Of a stretch of DNA of 64,000 bases, positions 41,459 through 63,421 are shown in pieces. Both the position numbers and the translations under genes were made by a program. Under the pieces are notes generated by a model. It was not told the origin of the DNA, made no database searches, and was given only the letters and a program-made list of their open reading frames with translations. The stretch is from a virus: the UHGV virus genome UHGV-1351408; one strand, written 5' to 3'. Numbering within the stretch: the first letter of the stretch is position 1; each line of letters opens with the position of its first letter.

Positions 41459-42193
41459 TTATTTCTGTAATGCGTTCTTCATTTCTGGTGTTGCAATAGT
41501 GTCAATCACACCAGTTTTACAAGCATCGTCAAACCAGTCTGGTAAGATACCTGCTAAGAACCCATTGATATTCGTTTTAAGGTACTCTGCAATAAGGGCA
41601 GCTTCTTCTTCAATCATCTGCACAACTTCATCTGCATAAGCTGTAATCTTCGAAATACCTTCATTAATCTTACTAACAGCTTGGTTAGCTAAATCAGAAA
41701 TAGTATCAAGACCTTTGTCAATAGCATCTTGTAAGTCACTTAATACATCATTAACACCGTCTAGTGCACTGTTAATCATATCAATAGCTTTTTGACCATA
41801 CTCTGTAGCAACACCCATAATACCACTAAATGGTGTACAACCGACTTGTTCACCTGCTGCACCCATAACATTAGAATAACCTTTTGCTACCTGCATACGT
41901 GATGAAAACTCATCAATGGACTTTTGACCGTAATCCGTCAGCGTTTTGGTAGTTGATGTAGTACTTGTCAGACTCGTTGTAAAGCTGTTAAGCAGAACTG
42001 TTGTAAGTCCAGCAGCAACAAGTTTATCCTTTATTGTAGGGTCTGTTACAGAGCTAATAGAGCTTACAAGTGATGTAGAGGCAGCTACGGTTCCACCGAG
42101 AACTGCTGCACCAGTAATAAGGGGATTAGAAAACCCTCTACCGGTTTTTAAGAGATTAAAAATCTCCTTACCTTGTTCTGTCATCTCTTTCAT
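41459..42193 (-). CDS. hypothetical Ser/Thr-rich protein inside the tRNA array
   Basis: ORF 41459-42256; start moved to MKEMTEQ (AAAGGTG RBS) to avoid tRNA-Phe. Confidence 0.45.
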   Translation of the reverse strand: MKEMTEQGKEIFNLLKTGRGFSNPLITGAAVLGGTVAASTSLVSSISSVTDPTIKDKLVAAGLTTVLLNSFTTSLTSTTSTTKTLTDYGQKSIDEFSSRMQVAKGYSNVMGAAGEQVGCTPFSGIMGVATEYGQKAIDMINSALDGVNDVLSDLQDAIDKGLDTISDLANQAVSKINEGISKITAYADEVVQMIEEEAALIAEYLKTNINGFLAGILPDWFDDACKTGVIDTIATPEMKNALQK

Positions 42194-42209
42194 TAAGCAC
42201 CTTTGAAAT

Positions 42210-42286
42210 TGGTAGTCCAGTGGGATTTGAACCCTCTTCTCATGTTTTTCAGACACGCGCTTTAACCATATAAGCTACTTGGACTA
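42210..42286 (-). tRNA. tRNA-Phe(GAA)
   Basis: Acceptor TAGTCCA/TGGACTA, anticodon loop CTGAAAA. Confidence 0.6.
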
Positions 42287-42367: not shown

Positions 42368-42398
42368 ATTTAAGGACTCTCGTAAGAACCCTTAGAAG

Positions 42399-42644: not shown

Positions 42645-43202
42645 TTACTTTCTTAGTGGATGAATAAAGAATGCCAACATAACTCTTTCCCTTGAGAATG
42701 CTCTTTCTTCTGGGACAACACTTTTTAGCTTCCACCCAATATAAATTCTCCAGTAAAACTGTTTACCAAAGACTTTAATTGATGGGATAAAAGCGAATAA
42801 TCCCCAAGCATTGCTGTTCCACATTAGGAGATAACCTGTCTGATTATCTTCAGGGTTAGAACTTACGTTGATATTACCTTTCCACTTAGTAACATCTTTT
42901 ACATCTCTTCCTAACACATGGTAAGAGAAGTTATAAGCTTTGTTTCTCCAGAGCCAACCAACTCTCTGCATATAGACACCAAGCTTACCAATCTTTCTAA
43001 TCTTAGCCCATCGTTCGATATGACCTTCATCACCATCAATTGGGTTGTCATAAGTTTCCATCCATCTGAACCCGAAAGGTAAGTGTCCTTTCTTCTCACT
43101 GTAGAATGGAACTACAAAAGGTGCTAAGATAACTGCTAAGATTGCTGCAAATGGCTCTAATAAAGCTAAGAAAATCCATGAAGCATACTTCAAATATCTC
43201 AT
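42645..43202 (-). CDS. membrane protein inside the tRNA array
   Basis: 185 aa; N-terminal hydrophobic segment WIFLALLEPFAAILAVILAPFVVPF. Confidence 0.45.
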   Translation of the reverse strand: MRYLKYASWIFLALLEPFAAILAVILAPFVVPFYSEKKGHLPFGFRWMETYDNPIDGDEGHIERWAKIRKIGKLGVYMQRVGWLWRNKAYNFSYHVLGRDVKDVTKWKGNINVSSNPEDNQTGYLLMWNSNAWGLFAFIPSIKVFGKQFYWRIYIGWKLKSVVPEERAFSRERVMLAFFIHPLRK

Positions 43203-43441
43203 TGTCTAATCCTAGTAAGGAGGTAAACATTATTATCTGTTTCTGAGTTTTCTGGTAAAGCTGTCTCAAAATTGACGCTTTTAAATTGTCTCCCACCAAA
43301 GTAATGACCAATAAATTTTTGTACTTTTATTGGGTCACATTCCCAGCCGACTTTCAAGAAAATGTGGGTATCTATAGTGGGAACCCTTACAAACTCAATA
43401 CTATTGGAATTTTCATGTTCAACGACGATTAATGTTTGCAT
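43199..43441 (-). CDS. hypothetical protein
   Basis: 80 aa. Confidence 0.4.
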   Translation of the reverse strand: MQTLIVVEHENSNSIEFVRVPTIDTHIFLKVGWECDPIKVQKFIGHYFGGRQFKSVNFETALPENSETDNNVYLLTRIRQ

Positions 43442-43459
43442 AAATCTCTCTTATTTATC

Positions 43460-43535
43460 TGGCGCAGGATAAGGGACTTGAACCCCTATTAACAGCTTCG
43501 TAGACTGTTGCTCTATCCATTTGAACTAATCCTGC
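43460..43535 (-). tRNA. tRNA-Arg(ACG)
   Basis: Acceptor GCAGGAT/ATCCTGC, loop CTACGAA. Confidence 0.7.
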
Positions 43536-43650
43536 TTACCTACGAGAACACCATACAGTTTTTCACAAACTTTGCTTTTACGTCTGTTTAGATATGACGC
43601 TCTAAACTTTTTTTGCAATTGACTTATTACTCATAGTGTTCTCCTAAAAT

Positions 43651-43728
43651 TGGTGTTCCAAGACGGATTCGAACCGTCACTAGTACAAGGTTTGAGCTTG
43701 CATCCTCTGCCAATTGGGATACTGGAAC
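43651..43728 (-). tRNA. tRNA with Leu anticodon CAA, short variable arm
   Basis: 78 nt; loop CTCAAAC; D-loop AATTGGCAGAGG; A73. Confidence 0.5.
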
Positions 43729-43729
43729 A

Positions 43730-43804
43730 TGGTACTCACTAAAGGACTTGAACCTTTTTCTTCATCTTGTAAGGGTGATGTTTTACCATATAAACTAAGC
43801 GAGT
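43730..43804 (-). tRNA. tRNA-Val(TAC)
   Basis: Loop CTTACAA. Confidence 0.5.
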
Positions 43805-43900
43805 GTGAAAGAGGTCTGAAGTTGTGCCACTAACTCAACTCCGTGGAATTTGTTACGGTCTTCAGTTGACTCAAAGTGGTCTTTCACTTGACCTCTGAAT

Positions 43901-43976
43901 TGGTGCTCCCACAAGGATTCGAACCCTGATAAGTTGCTTACAAGGCAACCGTAATAGCCAATTATACGATAGGAGC
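43901..43976 (-). tRNA. tRNA-Thr(TGT)
   Basis: Anticodon stem GTTGC/GCAAC, loop CTTGTAA. Confidence 0.7.
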
Positions 43977-43983
43977 ATTAATT

Positions 43984-44058
43984 TGGAGCATCCAGAGGGA
44001 ATCGAACCCTCAACCTCAGTTTGGAAGACTGTAATTTTCCCGTTTAAACTATGGATGC
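43984..44058 (-). tRNA. tRNA-Gly(TCC)
   Basis: Acceptor GCATCCA/TGGATGC, loop CTTCCAA. Confidence 0.65.
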
Positions 44059-44064
44059 ACTAAT

Positions 44065-44140
44065 TGGTGGAGTCACTGAGAATTGAACTCAGTTCCCAAG
44101 TTTGCAAAACTCGAATTTTAACCATATAAACTATGACCCC
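44065..44140 (-). tRNA. tRNA-Ala(TGC)
   Basis: Loop TTTGCAA. Confidence 0.6.
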
Positions 44141-44145
44141 AATTT

Positions 44146-44221
44146 TGGTACAGGTGGAGGGAATTGAACCCATCGTCTTACTGATTAAGAGTCAGCCGCA
44201 TAACCATTTTGCTACACCTGC
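44146..44221 (-). tRNA. tRNA-Lys(CTT)
   Basis: Loop CTCTTAA. Confidence 0.55.
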
Positions 44222-44228
44222 ATTAATT

Positions 44229-44305
44229 TGGTACACCTAGAGAGATTCGAACTCACACTGAGCAGATTCTAAGTCTGCTGCCTCTACCAATTGGGCTATA
44301 GGTGC
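44229..44305 (-). tRNA. tRNA with Leu anticodon TAG, short variable arm
   Basis: 77 nt; anticodon stem GCAGA/TCTGC, loop CTTAGAA; D-loop AATTGGTAGAGG; A73. Confidence 0.55.
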
Positions 44306-44560
44306 ATTAAATCTTTTTAGAGAACTTCTAAGAACCTAAGCAACAAGGTTCCACAACAAGCTGTAATAACCTTAGAAGCCCTCTAAAAAGACCTAATTTG
44401 GTCTTTGCATAGTCTTGTTTAATCCGGTGACTAGAACCTTTGGAGAGCTTGATATTATCTCTTCTCCGTGACACCTACTAGGTGCTTTATCAGTGTGTAC
44501 GACAATACACGAGGGATAAACCGAAAATGCGAGCAAGCATGGACGGTGTAAATCTTATTA

Positions 44561-44650
44561 GGCGGTAAGTAAAGGAGTCGAACCCTCACCGTATCTCTAC
44601 AGTGGCAACAGTTTTCAAGACTGTTTGGCTGCCATTAGCCGCTACCTACC
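44561..44650 (-). tRNA. tRNA-Ser(TGA), long variable arm
   Basis: 90 nt; anticodon stem ACAGT/ACTGT, loop CTTGAAA; 3' CC encoded, terminal A not. Confidence 0.6.
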
Positions 44651-44663
44651 CCTAATAAGACTT

Positions 44664-44746
44664 TGGCATGGGACGGAGGAGTTGAACCCCTTTGAAACGG
44701 TTTTGGAGGCCGTTGCTCATGCCTTAGAGTCTTAACATCGTCCCAC
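44664..44746 (-). tRNA. tRNA-like element, anticodon unassigned (CCA/Trp possible)
   Basis: 83 nt with good acceptor (GTGGGAC/GTCCCAT) and T-arm, but D/anticodon region does not fold canonically. Confidence 0.3.
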
Positions 44747-44888
44747 ATTATAATTCGAAGCTTACCGTATTATCTCAACACTGTAAAGCCCCTTCTCAGA
44801 TTATTTACATGTTCTGGAAAACATGAGATACAGACCACCTCCCTACAGGAAGACCCGCTTAGGTCGTCTAAGTAATCTGCTAACTAAT

Positions 44889-44965
44889 TGGCACACCCTA
44901 CAGGATTCGAACCTGTAACTAACGATTTAGAAGACCGTTGCTCTATCCAATTGAACTAAGGGTGC
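44889..44965 (-). tRNA. tRNA-Arg(TCT)
   Basis: Anticodon stem ACGGT/ATCGT, loop CTTCTAA. Confidence 0.7.
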
Positions 44966-45302
44966 ATTAATCTTTAAAGACTCTCTTAGAAAGCCCTTAA
45001 AGATGCCCACCTTATTAATCATACCGTGGGCTAGTACGCCAAATTCTTTGATGAGGGATTGGAATACCTCACTGGTGTTTAGCCTATCAAGCTACTGCCA
45101 GAAAAACATTGTCGTTTGCATTTATTTTAAATTTGCAAAATAGACGCTACGCAACGAAAACTATTCAGAATATGTACAACAAATTTCCCCACATTGTGTT
45201 ACGTCTAACGCTCATGTATTGGTGTTTGAATTATACATATTATGAATTATTTTTAGTTACTATAAAGTAGTCACATCTTAATGTCAACAACTTTATTGAA
45301 AT

Positions 45303-45378
45303 TGGTACTGGTAGGTGGAATCGAACCACCGATGTTCCCTTATCAGGGGAGTGTTATAACCTTCTTAACTATACCAGC
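45303..45378 (-). tRNA. tRNA-Ile(GAT)
   Basis: Loop CTGATAA. Confidence 0.6.
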
Positions 45379-45379
45379 T

Positions 45380-45456
45380 TGGAGGTTCAGATGGGAATCG
45401 AACCCACATTCATAGGGCTTATGAAACCCCTGCATTACCTTATCTGCGACTGAACC
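45380..45456 (-). tRNA. tRNA-Met(CAT)
   Basis: Loop TTCATAA; GGG/CCC run in anticodon stem. Confidence 0.55.
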
Positions 45457-45534
45457 ATAATAAGTACCCTAGTTAGAGAAACTGTTGAGTGGGTGTTTCC
45501 AGCCGCGCAGGTGTTTCTCAGTTAAGGGTGAATT

Positions 45535-45610
45535 TGGTAGAAGTGGAGGGATTCGAACCCATCGCCTGTCAGATTAAAAGTCTGCCGCATCACCATTCTG
45601 CTACACTTCC
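45535..45610 (-). tRNA. tRNA-Lys(TTT)
   Basis: Loop CTTTTAA. Confidence 0.6.
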
Positions 45611-45814
45611 ATTAAATTATCTTTGTAGATAAGCTACCCAGACTTGCTTAAGGTCTGTAGCGATGTGCCTTTTTGGGTTTAAATCTAGAATTTACCCTTT
45701 CACCCTTTGTGGTCGCATACTCACAGGTAAGCTTAATAACTTATCTACAAAGATAATTACCAGACCGTTGTTTATCATCTTAAGTGCTACCATTACACCA
45801 ACTCGACATCTGCC

Positions 45815-45838
45815 GAGTGAAGGAATCGAACCTTCGCC
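45815..45838 (-). other. isolated tRNA T-arm-like module (GAAGG-TTCGATT-CCTTC) without an acceptor stem
   Basis: Canonical T-arm, but no 5' partner for the would-be acceptor within 100 nt; lies inside a conserved-box spacer element. Confidence 0.35.
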
Positions 45839-46068
45839 TTTTCTTTACCGGAGAAATAGATTGTTTAAGTTTTGCTGTAAACGGTCTTCTGTAAATTTGT
45901 TGAGCCAGACCAAGTTTTAAATTTTTTCAAAATTAAATTGGCTTGAAAATATCATACGTACTTGCTGAATTTGGTCTTCTGCTCCTTTAAAGAATACTCG
46001 TAAGAACTCTTTAAGGGAGGGGCTAAATAGCCCTCTCAAAACATCATTTTGAAATACTTATTATAATT

Positions 46069-46145
46069 TGGCGGCTACGATGAGACTTGAACTCACATCA
46101 TCTCCCGTGACAGGGGAGTATTTTCTCCAGTTAAACTACATAGCC
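46069..46145 (-). tRNA. tRNA-Asp(GTC)
   Basis: Anticodon stem CTCCC/GGGAG, loop CTGTCAC. Confidence 0.7.
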
Positions 46146-46150
46146 TCTAT

Positions 46151-46238
46151 TGGTGTGCCGTGTAGGAGTCGAACCTACCGAGTCTCAATGACAAGGGATT
46201 TACAGTCCCCACCGCTACCATCTACGGGATAACGACAC
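46151..46238 (-). tRNA. tRNA-Tyr(GTA), long variable arm
   Basis: 88 nt; loop CTGTAAA. Confidence 0.7.
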
Positions 46239-46247
46239 ATTTTAATT

Positions 46248-46324
46248 TGGCGGTTAGTCAGGGATTCGAACCCTGTGCCATTCGCTTAACAGGCGACCGC
46301 ACATACCTTATGTGCTTCCTAACC
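46248..46324 (-). tRNA. tRNA-Asn(GTT)
   Basis: Loop CTGTTAA. Confidence 0.6.
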
Positions 46325-46400
46325 TTAATACATTACCAGACCGTGTTTTTCTTTTATCCGCAAAAAGTAGTTTGTTGCTGAATACGGTCTTCTGTAAAAT

Positions 46401-46477
46401 TGGAGGCGGGTGCAGGAGTCGAACCTGCCGATACCATGCTAATGAGACATGTGAGACGCCCTTTCTCTATACCCGCA
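46401..46477 (-). tRNA. tRNA with CAT anticodon (Met or Ile2)
   Basis: Loop CTCATTA; 1-72 mismatch. Confidence 0.45.
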
Positions 46478-46568
46478 ATTCTTAATGACCAGACCAAATC
46501 TCTTCTTTGTCCGATTTACCTTCAGATGAATAAGATTAAGTTTGCTGTAATTGGTCTTCTGTCAAAAC

Positions 46569-46646
46569 TGGCGTTCCAGAAGGGATTTGAACCCTCAGAT
46601 ATCCACTTTGAAAGAGTGGTGACTTTACCATTTTGTCTACTGGAAC
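46569..46646 (-). tRNA. tRNA-Glu(TTC)
   Basis: Anticodon stem CCACT/AGTGG, loop CTTTCAA. Confidence 0.7.
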
Positions 46647-46653
46647 ATTAATT

Positions 46654-46730
46654 TGGTCTCTGTTGGAGGACTTGAACCTCCGGCCTTACCGCCCCAAACG
46701 GAACGCTCTACCAAGCTGAGCTAAACAGAG
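46654..46730 (-). tRNA. tRNA-Pro(TGG)
   Basis: D-arm AGCTCAGCTTGGTAGAGC, loop TTTGGGG. Confidence 0.7.
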
Positions 46731-46848
46731 ATAAACTTTTCAAACTCTATGTAAACACTTTAACATTATTTTTTAGTGGTTGTCAAGAACTTTTTTAAAA
46801 TATTTTTCAGTATCTTAGAAAAGCTCTCATTTCGTTTCTATGTAGAAC

Positions 46849-46877
46849 ATATTAAAGGGTATCAAACACATTGTCAA
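46849..46877 (-). promoter_or_regulatory. near-consensus sigma70 promoter for the tRNA operon (TTGACA-17-TAATAT)
   Basis: Minus-strand read: TTGACAatgtgtttgatacccttTAATAT, about 110 nt upstream of the first tRNA (Pro). Confidence 0.45.
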
Positions 46878-46896
46878 TACCCTTTTTAAAACTTTT

Positions 46897-48312
46897 TTAC
46901 CAGATGTAACGGTCAAGCATTACTGCTTTGAGCATTACGCTGATTGGGTCAAACTTCTCACCACCAAGCAGAGCTTTTAAAGTGGCTGGAGAGAACCCTG
47001 ATACCATTGCTACACCATTATCCTTAACAGATACTTCGCAAGTACCATTACGGTTTGCTAAGTACCAGAATACTAGTTGTGGCATTTCGTATCCAGCTTT
47101 TTTGTACTTACTCTGAATTGCTTCAAAGTTTGTACGACCATTTGCACCATCAACCTGATTAAACTCCATATCAGAGAAGATAATAAGCTTACTTGGCATA
47201 TCTTTCTGAGTCAAGTTGTTTCTCTTACCTGTTTCAAGAATGCGGTCAAAAGCTGCTTGTAAGTTAGTTGAGCCATATTCAACGTGTCGCATCACCTGAC
47301 GATGACGGTTTCGTAAATCACCACTCAGTTCGATGAAGTGAGGGTTTGTTGAATAAACCATTAACTCATTCTTAAAGCAACCTGTATTGCGTTCTGCTAC
47401 ATACAAGGCAAGTGATACACCAATATCCAGAGCAGTAATGGAGCCAAAATTCACCCAAGACATTGAACTTGATACATCAGACATACACAAGATGTTTTCA
47501 CCTTCTGCCATCCAGTTTGGTAGTGCTTTCCACTGCTCATTAGCAACATCTGCATTACCATACTTGACAGATTTAATCACATCGTATGGGTAAACAGCAC
47601 CAGCGTTAATCTTAGTCTCACCTTTTGATAAGGACTCGATGTAAGCTTTGTAACGCTCTCCATCTTTACGGTTAAACAGTTTTTGGTAACGTGCAGCAGC
47701 AAGTGAAGGAATCTTACTGTAGTCAATCTTACCAAACTCATTAGCAGAGATTTTTTGCTCAACTGTATCAGATAGTGCAGACAACAGTGTGCGGTACTCT
47801 TTCTCACTCAAGTTGGCAAACTTGCAGAAACGTTTTACAAACTGCTTATGACGTGGTTTGACTCGTGGCAACCACTTAGCCGCCAAACCTGCTGTTGCAG
47901 GGTCTAGTAATGCTGCTTCTAAATGTTTGAAGGCATCTGTCTCGAAACGAGTACCTACGAAGATTTTGAAGTCATCAAAACGACCAAGTTCTGCAATCTT
48001 ATCCATAATGCGAAGAACCTGCGTAGACTCTAAAACTTTGTCTTCAATTGCTTGAAGCAAAACAGTTCTGAAGGCTTTACGCTCACCCATACCTTCTCGT
48101 ACATCTCGCATATGAAGCAAAATACGAACTGCAACATCAACATCCTCACGCAAAGCTTTGTAGAACAGGTCTGGTAAGATTTCTACGTTGCTACGGCTTG
48201 AACCAGCAGCTTTGTAAAAGTCTACAAGAGCAGACATTGATGAAGTATGGTTTACAGCACCATTTTCAGTTCGACCTGCATGAAGGTGCGCATGTTTAAA
48301 TAATTCGCTCAT
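46897..48312 (-). CDS. vWA-domain protein with MIDAS motif (possibly Ro60/TROVE-like)
   Basis: 471 aa; helical N-terminal part; C-terminal vWA features: DxSxS (CMSDVSSSMS), later STN and FSDME. Confidence 0.6.
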   Translation of the reverse strand: MSELFKHAHLHAGRTENGAVNHTSSMSALVDFYKAAGSSRSNVEILPDLFYKALREDVDVAVRILLHMRDVREGMGERKAFRTVLLQAIEDKVLESTQVLRIMDKIAELGRFDDFKIFVGTRFETDAFKHLEAALLDPATAGLAAKWLPRVKPRHKQFVKRFCKFANLSEKEYRTLLSALSDTVEQKISANEFGKIDYSKIPSLAAARYQKLFNRKDGERYKAYIESLSKGETKINAGAVYPYDVIKSVKYGNADVANEQWKALPNWMAEGENILCMSDVSSSMSWVNFGSITALDIGVSLALYVAERNTGCFKNELMVYSTNPHFIELSGDLRNRHRQVMRHVEYGSTNLQAAFDRILETGKRNNLTQKDMPSKLIIFSDMEFNQVDGANGRTNFEAIQSKYKKAGYEMPQLVFWYLANRNGTCEVSVKDNGVAMVSGFSPATLKALLGGEKFDPISVMLKAVMLDRYIW

Positions 48313-62998: not shown

Positions 62999-63075
62999 TT
63001 TTGAATCTCCTAGTTTAAGGACTTTACTTAGTGGGGAAGGTCATTCCCTCCCCGTTGATTAGTAATTTACTTGTT
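62999..63075 (-). promoter_or_regulatory. type-A intergenic cassette
   Basis: GGGGAAGGTCATTCCCTCCCC hairpin. Confidence 0.5.
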
Positions 63076-63088
63076 TTTAAAACTAAAA

Positions 63089-63421
63089 TCAAGAGAAATT
63101 TTTTCGTTTGTTCAGTTCTTGGACAATTACAGTGTAATAGTCTTTTAAGTCACTGATATTTAAAGCATTTATCAGAGAGTTATAATCATCGACAAGCTGA
63201 AAATTATCTTTGAAAATGTCGCTGATTTGATAAGTTTTTGATTGAAATCTGAAGCTCATTTCTAACCGTTTTATTTGTTCATCACTTAAACGCTCCAGAA
63301 AGCTCATTACAAGGCTATTATTAACCTGTTGCGTGATTGCCTTACTTGCCAAATTATATGCGCTATAAGCCTTGTACAGTGCTATAATGGCAATGATTGC
63401 AGTGATACCCATCATTAACAT
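63089..63421 (-). CDS. hypothetical membrane protein
   Basis: 110 aa; N-terminal TM segment MLMMGITAIIAIIALY; overlaps upstream gene by 7 nt. Confidence 0.5.
   Translation of the reverse strand: MLMMGITAIIAIIALYKAYSAYNLASKAITQQVNNSLVMSFLERLSDEQIKRLEMSFRFQSKTYQISDIFKDNFQLVDDYNSLINALNISDLKDYYTVIVQELNKRKNFS

Follow-up and report, generated by a model that had tools for sequence, protein, structure and literature searches.

A candidate tmRNA-derived template RNA in the tRNA array of a Felix O1-like phage that may act on host trans-translation

The defining feature of transfer-messenger RNA (tmRNA, or SsrA) is that it unites a tRNA-like domain with an mRNA-like one, and derivatives that keep only the tRNA-like domain are known. 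Other phage RNAs with which the locus described here can be compared are AgvB and AsxR, anti-sRNAs (directed against small RNAs) of prophages in enterohaemorrhagic Escherichia coli (EHEC), which come from late or accessory regions and pair with host regulatory RNA as short sponges of Hfq-dependent small RNAs, and the species 1 and 2 RNAs of phage T4, which are non-tRNA RNAs in a phage tRNA cluster and are not known to be tmRNA-like. We have analyzed a 64,000-nucleotide (nt) stretch of the virus genome UHGV-1351408 (hereafter the window), a segment of a Felixounavirus (Felix O1-like) that is 98% identical over the region to Salmonella phage PK6 and Escherichia phage HMD-P10 and that carries 26 tRNA genes on its minus strand between 41285 and 46730 (ARAGORN). 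Three large spacers in this array had been singled out by an earlier reading of the sequence, made without database searches (the sequence-only reading), as possible stable small RNAs. The third of them (spacer 3), which ARAGORN places exactly where that reading had it, at 44966-45302 between tRNA-Arg(UCU) and tRNA-Ile (337 nt), probably contains, to judge from comparison among phages, the gene for a tmRNA-derived RNA of ~200-290 nt with its own sigma70 promoter within the array. That the RNA is tmRNA-derived was unforeseen in the sequence-only reading. We tentatively favor the possibility that the spacer 3 RNA is a template-only tmRNA derivative that acts on host trans-translation through an antisense 5' end, and that spacers 1 and 2 are other conserved structured elements.

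The ~130-nt core of spacer 3 is not confined to close relatives of the window. It matches 605 phage records from unrelated groups at 70-82% identity, and its carriers include Ounavirinae, Ackermannviridae, Schitoviridae, Chaseviridae, Jedunavirus, 46-kb siphophages, SSU5-like phage-plasmids and lambdoid prophages (Table 1). The strand is usually that of the tRNAs or late genes, and the core is also present in phages with no tRNA nearby (Jedunavirus, the 46-kb phages and the lambdoid prophages). We rejected a host origin of the core: it has no match in core genes and occurs in only 338 of 5426 complete E. coli genomes, always in prophages or phage-plasmids, the prophage copies lying between the genes for antiterminator Q and holin. 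No annotation was found at any core match, phage or E. coli. Protein coding was also rejected, as the longest open reading frame (ORF) is 46-53 amino acids (aa) and the changes between families are compensatory in stems, with indels in loops, and so was an alternative AUG frame, with inconsistent ORF lengths and a start codon that is not conserved in the GJ1 and SSU5 types. In lambdoid prophages, 46-kb phages and G7C-like phages the tmRNA-like core sits in 1-2 kb of non-coding sequence, in which repeated complementary arms (GGUAAGAGCAUU and AGUGCUCUUUCC, similar to the host pseudoknot 2 stem) flank variable inserts, some of them T-arm-like hairpins; there the core and its surroundings may form a much larger composite structured RNA.

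The central part of the core has the organization of a tmRNA tag template. The U at -5 and the A at -4 of its linker correspond to U85 and A86 of E. coli tmRNA, and A86 is the main frame-selection determinant of tmRNA (PMC2481249). The linker is followed by a GCA resume codon, a 10-codon tag and a stop codon in all 130 copies, as well as in the BLAST-derived copies of the SSU5 type and of GJ1, PYps3T and phiA050; 120 loci were added by a pattern scan of IMG/VR and, because this pattern itself fixes the tag spacing, the constant length of the tag is independent evidence only for the ~15 BLAST-derived copies. Tags in other phages include ANDDVVLMAA, ANEEMYLAVA, ANDEQFLAVA and ANDSEMRVAA (the E. 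coli tmRNA tag is ANDENYALAA). Variation within the tag is of the coding type and falls mostly at third codon positions (AAC/AAU at codon 2, GAU/GAC/GAA at codon 3, GCU/GCC/GCG at codon 10), and the stop is UAA, UGA or UAG in the copies and never a sense codon. The spacer 3 RNA thus has the resume codon, the upstream U and A, the short tag with a hydrophobic end and the stop that characterize a tmRNA template, and in Citrobacter phage Mordin ARAGORN accepts a 'resume consensus' together with the tag ANDNVFLAVA.

The folding of the core is likewise tmRNA-like. The stop codon lies in a helix-5-like hairpin that is followed by pseudoknots, two of them as compared with three downstream pseudoknots in E. 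coli. Support for the structure was assessed with RNAalifold and by explicit pair counting on 65 dereplicated copies: 91.2% of cells were paired, as opposed to 38-46% with slid partners, and 152 cells were changed on both sides versus 47±5 in shuffles (0/500). Pseudoknot 2 has a stem that is 97% paired with many compensatory changes, and its loop-3' pairing is 91% paired and compensatory at 4/4 pairs. In pseudoknot 3, which has a conserved loop (GAUUAAUAA), S1 is 94% paired, 2-3 of its pairs showing compensatory changes; the hairpin stem covaries (GGCCC/GGGC; GGCGGGAG/CUCCCGCC), and the alignment-wide version of the pseudoknot is CGCAC/GUGUG across the covarying GGCCC/GGGC stem. The lambdoid, 46-kb, N4-like and Ackermann types have, upstream of the linker, a pairing of the H type that resembles pseudoknot 1 (PK1); this pairing, which we call helix 1, is 84% paired with few compensatory changes. 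The same segment in the window's type folds instead as a simple hairpin over the resume codon. Conservation of structure in related phages, proposed in the sequence-only reading as a check, is seen for spacer 3 as strong covariation.

Model searches point in the same direction. The tmRNA families of Rfam are the only meaningful matches to the core, at 6.5-33 bits and in every case under the gathering threshold: tmRNA_permuted (threshold 47), which aligns at the tag template, gives the window 20.3 bits and RF00023 gives it 6.5-14.9 bits, and the best homologue reaches 33.1 bits. Conversely, a covariance model built from the phage copies alone finds one copy in the window (129.5 bits) and matches nt ~70-180 of bacterial ssrA in 68/71 Enterobacterales and Pasteurellales loci at 14-26 bits, with E-values that, for a custom model, are rough. 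(A second, weak match of this model, at 63010-63128, falls on a terminator-like hairpin between genes and is not a copy.) On these comparative grounds we regard descent of the spacer 3 RNA from tmRNA as established, given the template architecture, the covariation, the restriction of Rfam matches to tmRNA families, the reverse matches to ssrA and the ARAGORN resume consensus. With bacterial tmRNA (RF00023) it shares (i) an A-rich linker with U-5 and A-4, preceded in most phage types by a pseudoknot-like pairing, and the GCA resume codon; (ii) a 10-codon tag with an AND start and a small hydrophobic end; (iii) a stop in a hairpin loop followed by pseudoknots and (iv) reciprocal model matches. 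Unlike bacterial tmRNA, it is ~200 nt long rather than ~360 nt, has only two downstream pseudoknots, scores below the Rfam thresholds, ends its tag in LAVA or LMAA instead of ALAA, has no acceptor stem, T arm, G3:U70 pair, CCA or helix 2, and carries a 5' end that is antisense to the host template.

This antisense end first appears in a BLAST comparison of E. coli ssrA with the phage elements, where the best alignments lie on the opposite strand. Aligned locally to the reverse complement of E. coli tmRNA, the window's 5' domain reaches a score of 16, compared with 8.2±1.3 for shuffled sequences and 8 for the sense control; alignment against shuffles was used in place of RNAduplex (70 nt versus the whole tmRNA) because the background of the latter is high. 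In 11/11 phage types the segment from UAGUUUUCG to the linker is collinear with the reverse complement of tmRNA from nt 57, 68 or 80 to nt 106, and the antisense scores are 12-20 versus 8.3±1.4 in shuffles (p <= 0.015, mostly < 0.001), with sense scores at background. The antisense target, nt ~68-106 of host tmRNA, takes in the PK1 3' strand, the A-rich linker, U85/A86, GUC-GCA and codons 2-6. Complementarity of the 5' domain is higher to the host segment (13.2) than to the homologous segment of the phage itself (7.1) in every one of 62 dereplicated copies. The sequence GUUUUCG occurs in 128/130 copies, most copies have an exact host match of 9-11 nt, and the target GACGAAAACUAC is near-universal in Enterobacterales tmRNAs.

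Where the RNA begins and ends can be approached through its flanks. The predicted promoter ahead of the core is kept in Moogle- and Suspvirus, ~7 nt ahead of UUAGUUUUCG, and an analogous TTGACA-N17-TAnAnT lies directly upstream, at the same distance, in copies from Erwinia phages and 46-kb phages. Between promoter and core the window has an additional module, helix A, that is missing from Moogle- and Suspvirus and from many Felixounavirus copies and is shared with GJ1-like Chaseviridae at 81-85% identity, where the changes in its stem are compensatory. Because the promoter sits ~7 nt before UUAGUUUUCG in relatives without helix A, the RNA probably starts at the UAGUUUUCG motif or close to it. 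Its 3' end is presumably generated by RNase P, which would cut at tRNA-Arg(UCU), downstream of a leader hairpin. A hairpin of the form ~AAGGGyUyUcUAAgAGAGUCyUU recurs on the minus strand at 42368-42398, 44970-45004, 44313-44390 and ~45985-46025, that is, directly 5' of tRNA-His, tRNA-Arg(UCU) and tRNA-Leu(UAG) and once inside a 458-nt spacer, and may be a processing or leader signal.

A tRNA-like domain that would complete the template was looked for in several ways. ARAGORN reports no tmRNA, permuted forms included, for the window or for any of ten other loci. The conserved block, which extends from UAGUUUUCG to just past pseudoknot 3 and has variable flanks, contains neither a T arm nor an acceptor stem, nor do the helix-A insert and the variable inserts of other phages, and no acceptor, T-arm and CCA domain with a G3:U70 pair was found for the spacer 3 RNA. 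A wider search for such a domain elsewhere, using ARAGORN on 16 loci, the Rfam tmRNA families (none matched at or above its gathering threshold) and a custom scan for a T arm, acceptor 3' strand, loop and acceptor 5' strand, returned one module, discussed below, and only in Ounavirinae. The helix-A insert was considered as a permuted tRNA-like domain, having 'ACACCA' and a UUAGACG loop (compare UUCGACG in tmRNA), and was rejected for want of a T arm and an acceptor complement and also because the module is absent in most relatives. The window has no SmpB homologue by tblastn; any use of SmpB would rely on that of the host. Since the defining tRNA-like domain was tested for and is not present, we do not class the spacer 3 RNA as a tmRNA, which is nevertheless the closest known entity. 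The comparisons show a structurally constrained, tmRNA-derived template module with a predicted promoter and no tRNA-like domain, whose 5' end reads as an antisense copy of the host template. In this respect it is the mirror image of the tmRNA of mycobacteriophage DS6A, also a truncated derivative borne by a phage, which like the organellar tmRNAs without a coding sequence has a tRNA-like domain and no tag template.

The two-piece permuted tmRNAs of alpha-, some beta-proteobacteria and cyanobacteria (RF01849-51, RF04321) offer a second point of comparison, as their coding piece also stands apart from any acceptor piece; the best Rfam similarity of the phage RNA is to tmRNA_permuted (20-33 bits), and ARAGORN makes a 'permuted' call in Mordin. 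True coding pieces, in contrast, open with acceptor 5' and helix-2 strands that dock on an adjacent acceptor piece, whereas the phage RNA opens with its antisense end and no docking partner was found for it. The one module returned by the search lies in the 458-nt Asp-Lys spacer, ~1 kb downstream of a Ro60-like ORF on the same strand, and has a T arm (GAAGG-UUCGAUU-CCUUC) and a 7-bp acceptor-like stem closed by a 4-nt loop (ACUCGGC-AGAU-GUCGAGU). In the Mooglevirus Mordin the acceptor stem of this module covaries with that of the window and GCCA is encoded. A genuine multi-piece phage tmRNA that takes its tRNA-like domain from the module could be supposed from the ARAGORN report in Mordin, in which module (with its encoded GCCA) and tag, 553 nt downstream, are joined as a 'permuted tmRNA, tag ANDNVFLAVA', from the covarying acceptor stem and from the co-linearity of module and tag gene in 14 Ounavirinae loci. 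We give this little credence: the module has no G3:U70 (C3:G70 in the window, A3:U70 in Mordin); between it and the tag gene lie three tRNA genes and a promoter; complementarity between module and tag RNA is at chance (10 nt versus a shuffled mean of 8.9 and a maximum of 13); in none of the non-Ounavirinae loci examined is it near the tag gene; and no adjacent acceptor piece pairs with the template through an acceptor stem and helix 2, the module closing on itself. Pairing of the tag RNA with the other array spacers was also tried and gave nothing above chance.

The module would fit a YrlA-type Y RNA better than an acceptor piece, because of its T arm, acceptor stem and D arm (T-AS-D) order and its position downstream of the Ro60-like gene. 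YrlA-type Y RNAs have this T-AS-D order (PMC4201824), and the module resembles them in its T arm, closed acceptor-like stem and D arm and in having a Ro60-like gene within 4 kb on the same strand; it differs from them in that it has no Rfam match and its GNCGAA-like motif overlaps the T stem. Four paralogous modules bounded by the stem CAGAAGACC...GGUCUGG occur on the minus strand (46336-46394, 46478-46568, 45760-45891 and ~45895-45985), share ...CAGCAA... after the 5' arm and differ in their inserts; they may be Y-RNA-like paralogues or processing stems. As a separate matter, at the 5' end of the Arg-Ser spacer Mordin and EcSzw_1 have an extra ~120-nt tRNA-like element, absent from the window and uncalled by ARAGORN, with acceptor strands GGUCAAG/CUUGACU, a T arm (GUAGG-UUCGACU-CCUAC), an encoded GCCA and a very long insert.

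How might a template without a tRNA-like domain act? We envisage that the 5' end of the phage RNA would pair with the single-stranded template region of host tmRNA and that this pairing would mask the host resume codon, such that the degradation tag ANDENYALAA would no longer be templated; possibly, the phage template would also be presented beside the host alanyl-tRNA-like domain, resulting in a tag swap. Blocking of host SsrA by the phage RNA is plausible by analogy, because a duplex over nt 85-100 of tmRNA, around the resume codon, is known to inactivate it (see the discussion of A86C in PMC2481249). Conservation of the tag is of the coding type, which argues that the phage template is actually read, in which case a host acceptor domain would be needed as the phage RNA has none of its own. 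One version of the proposal is a two-piece tmRNA formed in trans, with the phage coding piece docking on host SsrA, masking its template and using the host tRNA-like domain, SmpB and EF-Tu, so that tags of the AANDNVFLAVA type would replace AANDENYALAA; we consider this rather unlikely. N6, Y7, L9 and A10 of AANDENYALAA are important in its recognition by SspB and ClpX for delivery to ClpXP. AAND is retained in the phage tags, which differ at positions relevant to this recognition, and it is a matter of speculation that a swapped tag would spare rescued proteins.

Several observations weigh against an action on host SsrA through the antisense end: (i) the net gain from dimer formation with E. 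coli tmRNA in RNAcofold is only -0.7 kcal/mol for the window variant, that is, none, the gain for other phage types being 7.6-14.8 kcal/mol versus 2.5-8.9 for controls; (ii) the antisense block is partly used in cis, in the PK1-like helix 1 (84% paired), and because the block is shared with this helix the complementarity to the host could in part reflect homology or an ancestral inverted duplication; (iii) host-specific adaptation of the seed was not seen, Yersinia and Aeromonas phages carrying the same seed, and co-variation of seed and host is uninformative because most hosts share the target and (iv) if the tag is translated, simple blocking leaves this unexplained, while a tag swap requires a heteromolecular tmRNA, which is unprecedented. 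In another scenario the RNA is an autonomous mimic or decoy that titrates S1, RNase R, the SmpB tail or a defence protein with an SmpB-like domain and does not pair with SsrA, its antisense end being a relic of inverted duplication of a captured ssrA fragment. The strong conservation of the tmRNA-like architecture, the partial use of the 5' domain in cis and the weak cofold support for the window variant would all suit such a decoy, and recognition of tmRNA-like RNAs is predicted for defence systems that have SmpB-like domains (PMC10542128). On the other hand, UAGUUUUCG, the most invariant motif, has no partner in cis and fits host codons rather than the phage's own, and a decoy would not need a tag and stop conserved in the manner of coding sequence. 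We think the decoy unlikely, if deserving of serious consideration, and continue to favor, tentatively, a template-only RNA that acts through pairing with host tmRNA.

Table 1. Positions in the window of the spacer 3 gene and of other elements of the tRNA array, with the settings of the spacer 3 core in other phages
Feature	Position	Strand	Remarks
Predicted sigma70-type promoter TTGACA-N17-TATAGT	45259..45287	-	11/12; best site in 43400-47000
Optional 'helix A' module (89 nt)	45163..45247	-	18-bp stem 45230-45247/45163-45180 around 49-nt insert; minimum free energy (MFE) fold
5' domain UAGUUUUCGUUGCGUAGCGUCUAUUUU	45137..45163	-	Antisense to host tmRNA nt 81-106: codons 3-6, resume codon, U85/A86 region
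Linker AUAAAU before resume codon	45120..45125	-	U at -5, A at -4; nearly invariant in 65 copies
Tag template GCA AAC GAC AAU GUU UUU CUG GCA GUA GCU UGA	45087..45119	-	ANDNVFLAVA*
Helix-5-like hairpin	45072..45101	-	Stop codon in loop; outer stem 99% paired in 65 sequences; one pair GC43/AU21
Pseudoknot 2	45039..45071	-	Stem-loop 45052-45071; loop CCAA (45059-45062) with UUGG (45039-45042)
Pseudoknot 3	45005..45038	-	CGUAC (45034-45038) with GUAUG (45020-45024) in loop of GCCCAC/GUGGGC hairpin (45005-45031)
Leader hairpin directly 5' of tRNA-Arg(UCU)	44970..45004	-	Kept in Moogle- and Suspvirus with compensatory change
Permuted tRNA-like module in 458-nt Asp-Lys spacer	45760-45891	-	Closing stem CAGAAGACCGUU/AACGGUCUGG, T arm, acceptor-like stem, D arm
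Spacer 2 structured element	44792..44880	-	Holds hairpin 44808-44825 and GGGAGGUGGUC; z -2.55
Atypical tRNA-Trp(CCA)-like gene	44664..44746	-	7-bp acceptor stem, T arm, encoded GCCA, aberrant D arm
Spacer 1 conserved block	44400..44488	-	Several small hairpins; ~3 substitutions/89 nt between Felixouna- and Mooglevirus
Long leader hairpin directly 5' of tRNA-Leu(UAG)	44313..44390	-	MFE and centroid folds; outer stem conserved, inner part variable
Core in Erwinia Kolesnikvirus			Inside tRNA array
Core in Ackermannviridae such as Det7			Upstream of tRNAs
Core in Schitoviridae			G7C-like and Ithacavirus
Core in Jedunavirus			
Core in 46-kb siphophages			Klebsiella and E. coli
Core in Chaseviridae			GJ1-like
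Core in SSU5-like phage-plasmids			Upstream of tRNA array

The other two spacers were delimited by the sequence-only reading with mixed accuracy. Spacer 1, the gap between tRNA-Leu(UAG) and tRNA-Ser(UGA) at 44306-44560 (255 nt), is exact by ARAGORN. Spacer 2 is a real gap of a different size: between the Ser and Arg genes ARAGORN leaves 44651-44888 (238 nt), and the 142 nt given earlier (44747-44888) presuppose a tRNA at 44651-44746 that is called neither by ARAGORN nor by the Rfam tRNA model. The two hairpins that had been pointed out are in place and conserved, AAGACC/GGTCTT at 44388-44405 and CATGTT/AACATG at 44808-44825, the latter being CCUGAC/GUCAGG in Erwinia phage Hena2, and it is correct that the three spacers contain no convincing ORF (none >53 aa). 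The statement that all other spacers in the array are 1-10 nt long did not hold, as there are non-coding gaps of 31, 76, 78, 91, 96, 115 and 458 nt, and two further gaps, of 752 and 823 nt, contain ORFs. Nor did the analogy drawn with the stable RNAs of T4 survive, at least at the sequence level: no T4-like phage is among the matches to any of the three spacers (blastn, word size 11, 50,697 phage records), and the likeness of the spacer 3 RNA to the T4 species 1 and 2 RNAs is confined to their being non-tRNA RNAs in a phage tRNA cluster. The suggestion that the spacers may be stable small RNAs fares better in part, in that they are syntenic and conserved over three Ounavirinae genera, significantly structured (z of the minus-strand RNA against dinucleotide shuffles -3.60, -2.55 and -5.45 for spacers 1, 2 and 3) and without a credible ORF, while spacer 3, with its predicted promoter and strong covariation, appears to be an RNA gene of its own.

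Spacers 1 and 2 match Ounavirinae only (254 and 257 records), and searches of Rfam with them gave only chance matches to hairpins of the microRNA type. Part of spacer 2, as ARAGORN delimits it, is accounted for by the tRNA-Trp-like gene listed in Table 1, which is uncalled by ARAGORN and not accepted by the Rfam tRNA model (Rfam gives only tRNA-Sec, at 23 bits). Its anticodon stem has four compensatory pairs between genera (ACGG/CCGU vs UAAG/CUUA) around an invariant CUCCAAA loop, and the array has no other tRNA-Trp; comparison shows what looks to be a real, if atypical, tRNA-Trp-like gene. The other 142 nt of spacer 2 hardly vary among 17 unique Ounavirinae copies, and their stems are supported by changes in Mordin and Sf15 (Mooglevirus) and in Hena2. 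Within them, GGGAGGUGGUC (44833-44843, minus strand) is almost perfectly complementary to the 16S rRNA 3' end, invariant in Ounavirinae and predicted to be buried in a helix. In spacer 1 the hairpin at 44388-44405 overlaps the 3' end of the conserved block, and the 5' part is a hairpin for which three unrelated sequences are found in the same place. The elements of spacers 1 and 2 probably act in transcript processing or as RNAs.

It could be argued that all of these spacers are mere cis-acting parts of a polycistronic tRNA precursor (promoters, processing stems and leaders) whose fragments are degraded without function. In keeping with this, several tRNAs have a recurrent hairpin directly 5' of them, spacers 1 and 2 occur in Ounavirinae alone and vary too little for a covariation test, and homing-endonuclease insertions in relatives indicate that some spacer positions tolerate disruption. 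For spacer 3 this explanation is excluded by conservation of the element in phages that have no tRNA close to it and by its architecture, which is of the tmRNA type; for spacers 1 and 2, the near-invariant blocks exceed the conservation that simple processing stems need. We regard it as improbable overall. The insertions in question are homing-endonuclease genes (HNH or endonuclease VII) that occupy the same array spacers in Felix O1, SP22 and CRP22; in Felix O1 the Ile-Ser interval is 1044 nt long and tRNA-Arg(UCU) was not detected.

The array lies downstream of a 471-aa ORF (46897-48312, minus strand) annotated DUF2828/DUF7788 and not as TROVE, which is a homologue of Bas63 gp130; a search of its sequence against the PDB gave no match. 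Bas63 gp130 is reported in a preprint to be structurally Ro60-like and to counter the Ppl defence (PMC11482910). For the related phage Bas63 the PhageMaP authors proposed that 'some tRNA genes' encode Y-RNA-like partners of the Ro60-like protein, and spacers 1 and 2 might be viewed in the same light given that a Ro60-like gene heads the array, that a YrlA-like module is present at 45760-45891 and that spacer 1 terminates in a long Y-RNA-like stem. This, too, we find very doubtful, as spacers 1 and 2 (44306-44888) have no T-AS-D arrangement, GNCGAA motif or Rfam match and the candidate Y-like modules fall outside the three spacers. Our preferred view of spacers 1 and 2 remains that of conserved structured elements distinct from the spacer 3 RNA. 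Between the Ro60-like ORF and the first tRNA gene (Pro) there are two more sigma70-like promoters on the minus strand (46849-46877 and 46757-46786, 10/12 each), which are probably the main promoters of the array, and three protein genes lie within the array on the minus strand at 41459-42256 and 42645-43441, coding for DUF7217 (265 aa) and DUF7338 (185 aa) proteins and for an 80-aa ORF product with no Pfam match.

Two surveys for the tmRNA database, in 2014 and 2025, searched RefSeq viruses by means of ARAGORN and Rfam; among phages, the first listed only mycobacteriophage and Bacillus phage G tmRNAs, and the second rejected truncations. We found no description of a template-only tmRNA derivative in these papers or in full-text searches for tag peptides and tmRNA-like phage RNAs, in a searchable corpus that is incomplete. 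The spacer 3 RNA also differs from AgvB and AsxR in that it would target tmRNA and carries a complete tmRNA-like template.

Judging from its sequence relationships, phages may tamper with ribosome rescue through the spacer 3 RNA. The carriers include model and therapeutic phage groups (Felix O1, Bas63, Det7/Kuttervirus, G7C-like relatives of N4, GJ1 and SSU5) and lambdoid prophages of the EHEC type. If the RNA blocks or re-templates SsrA, it would represent a new viral route to control of host protein quality control, and one relevant to defences that stall ribosomes by cutting tRNA or mRNA, which would fit its home in a tRNA array beside a Ro60-like counter-defence gene. It would also provide a natural tool to alter the tag that is added by trans-translation. 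Should a two-piece tmRNA indeed be formed in trans with host SsrA, hundreds of enterobacterial phages and prophages would be reprogramming ribosome rescue.

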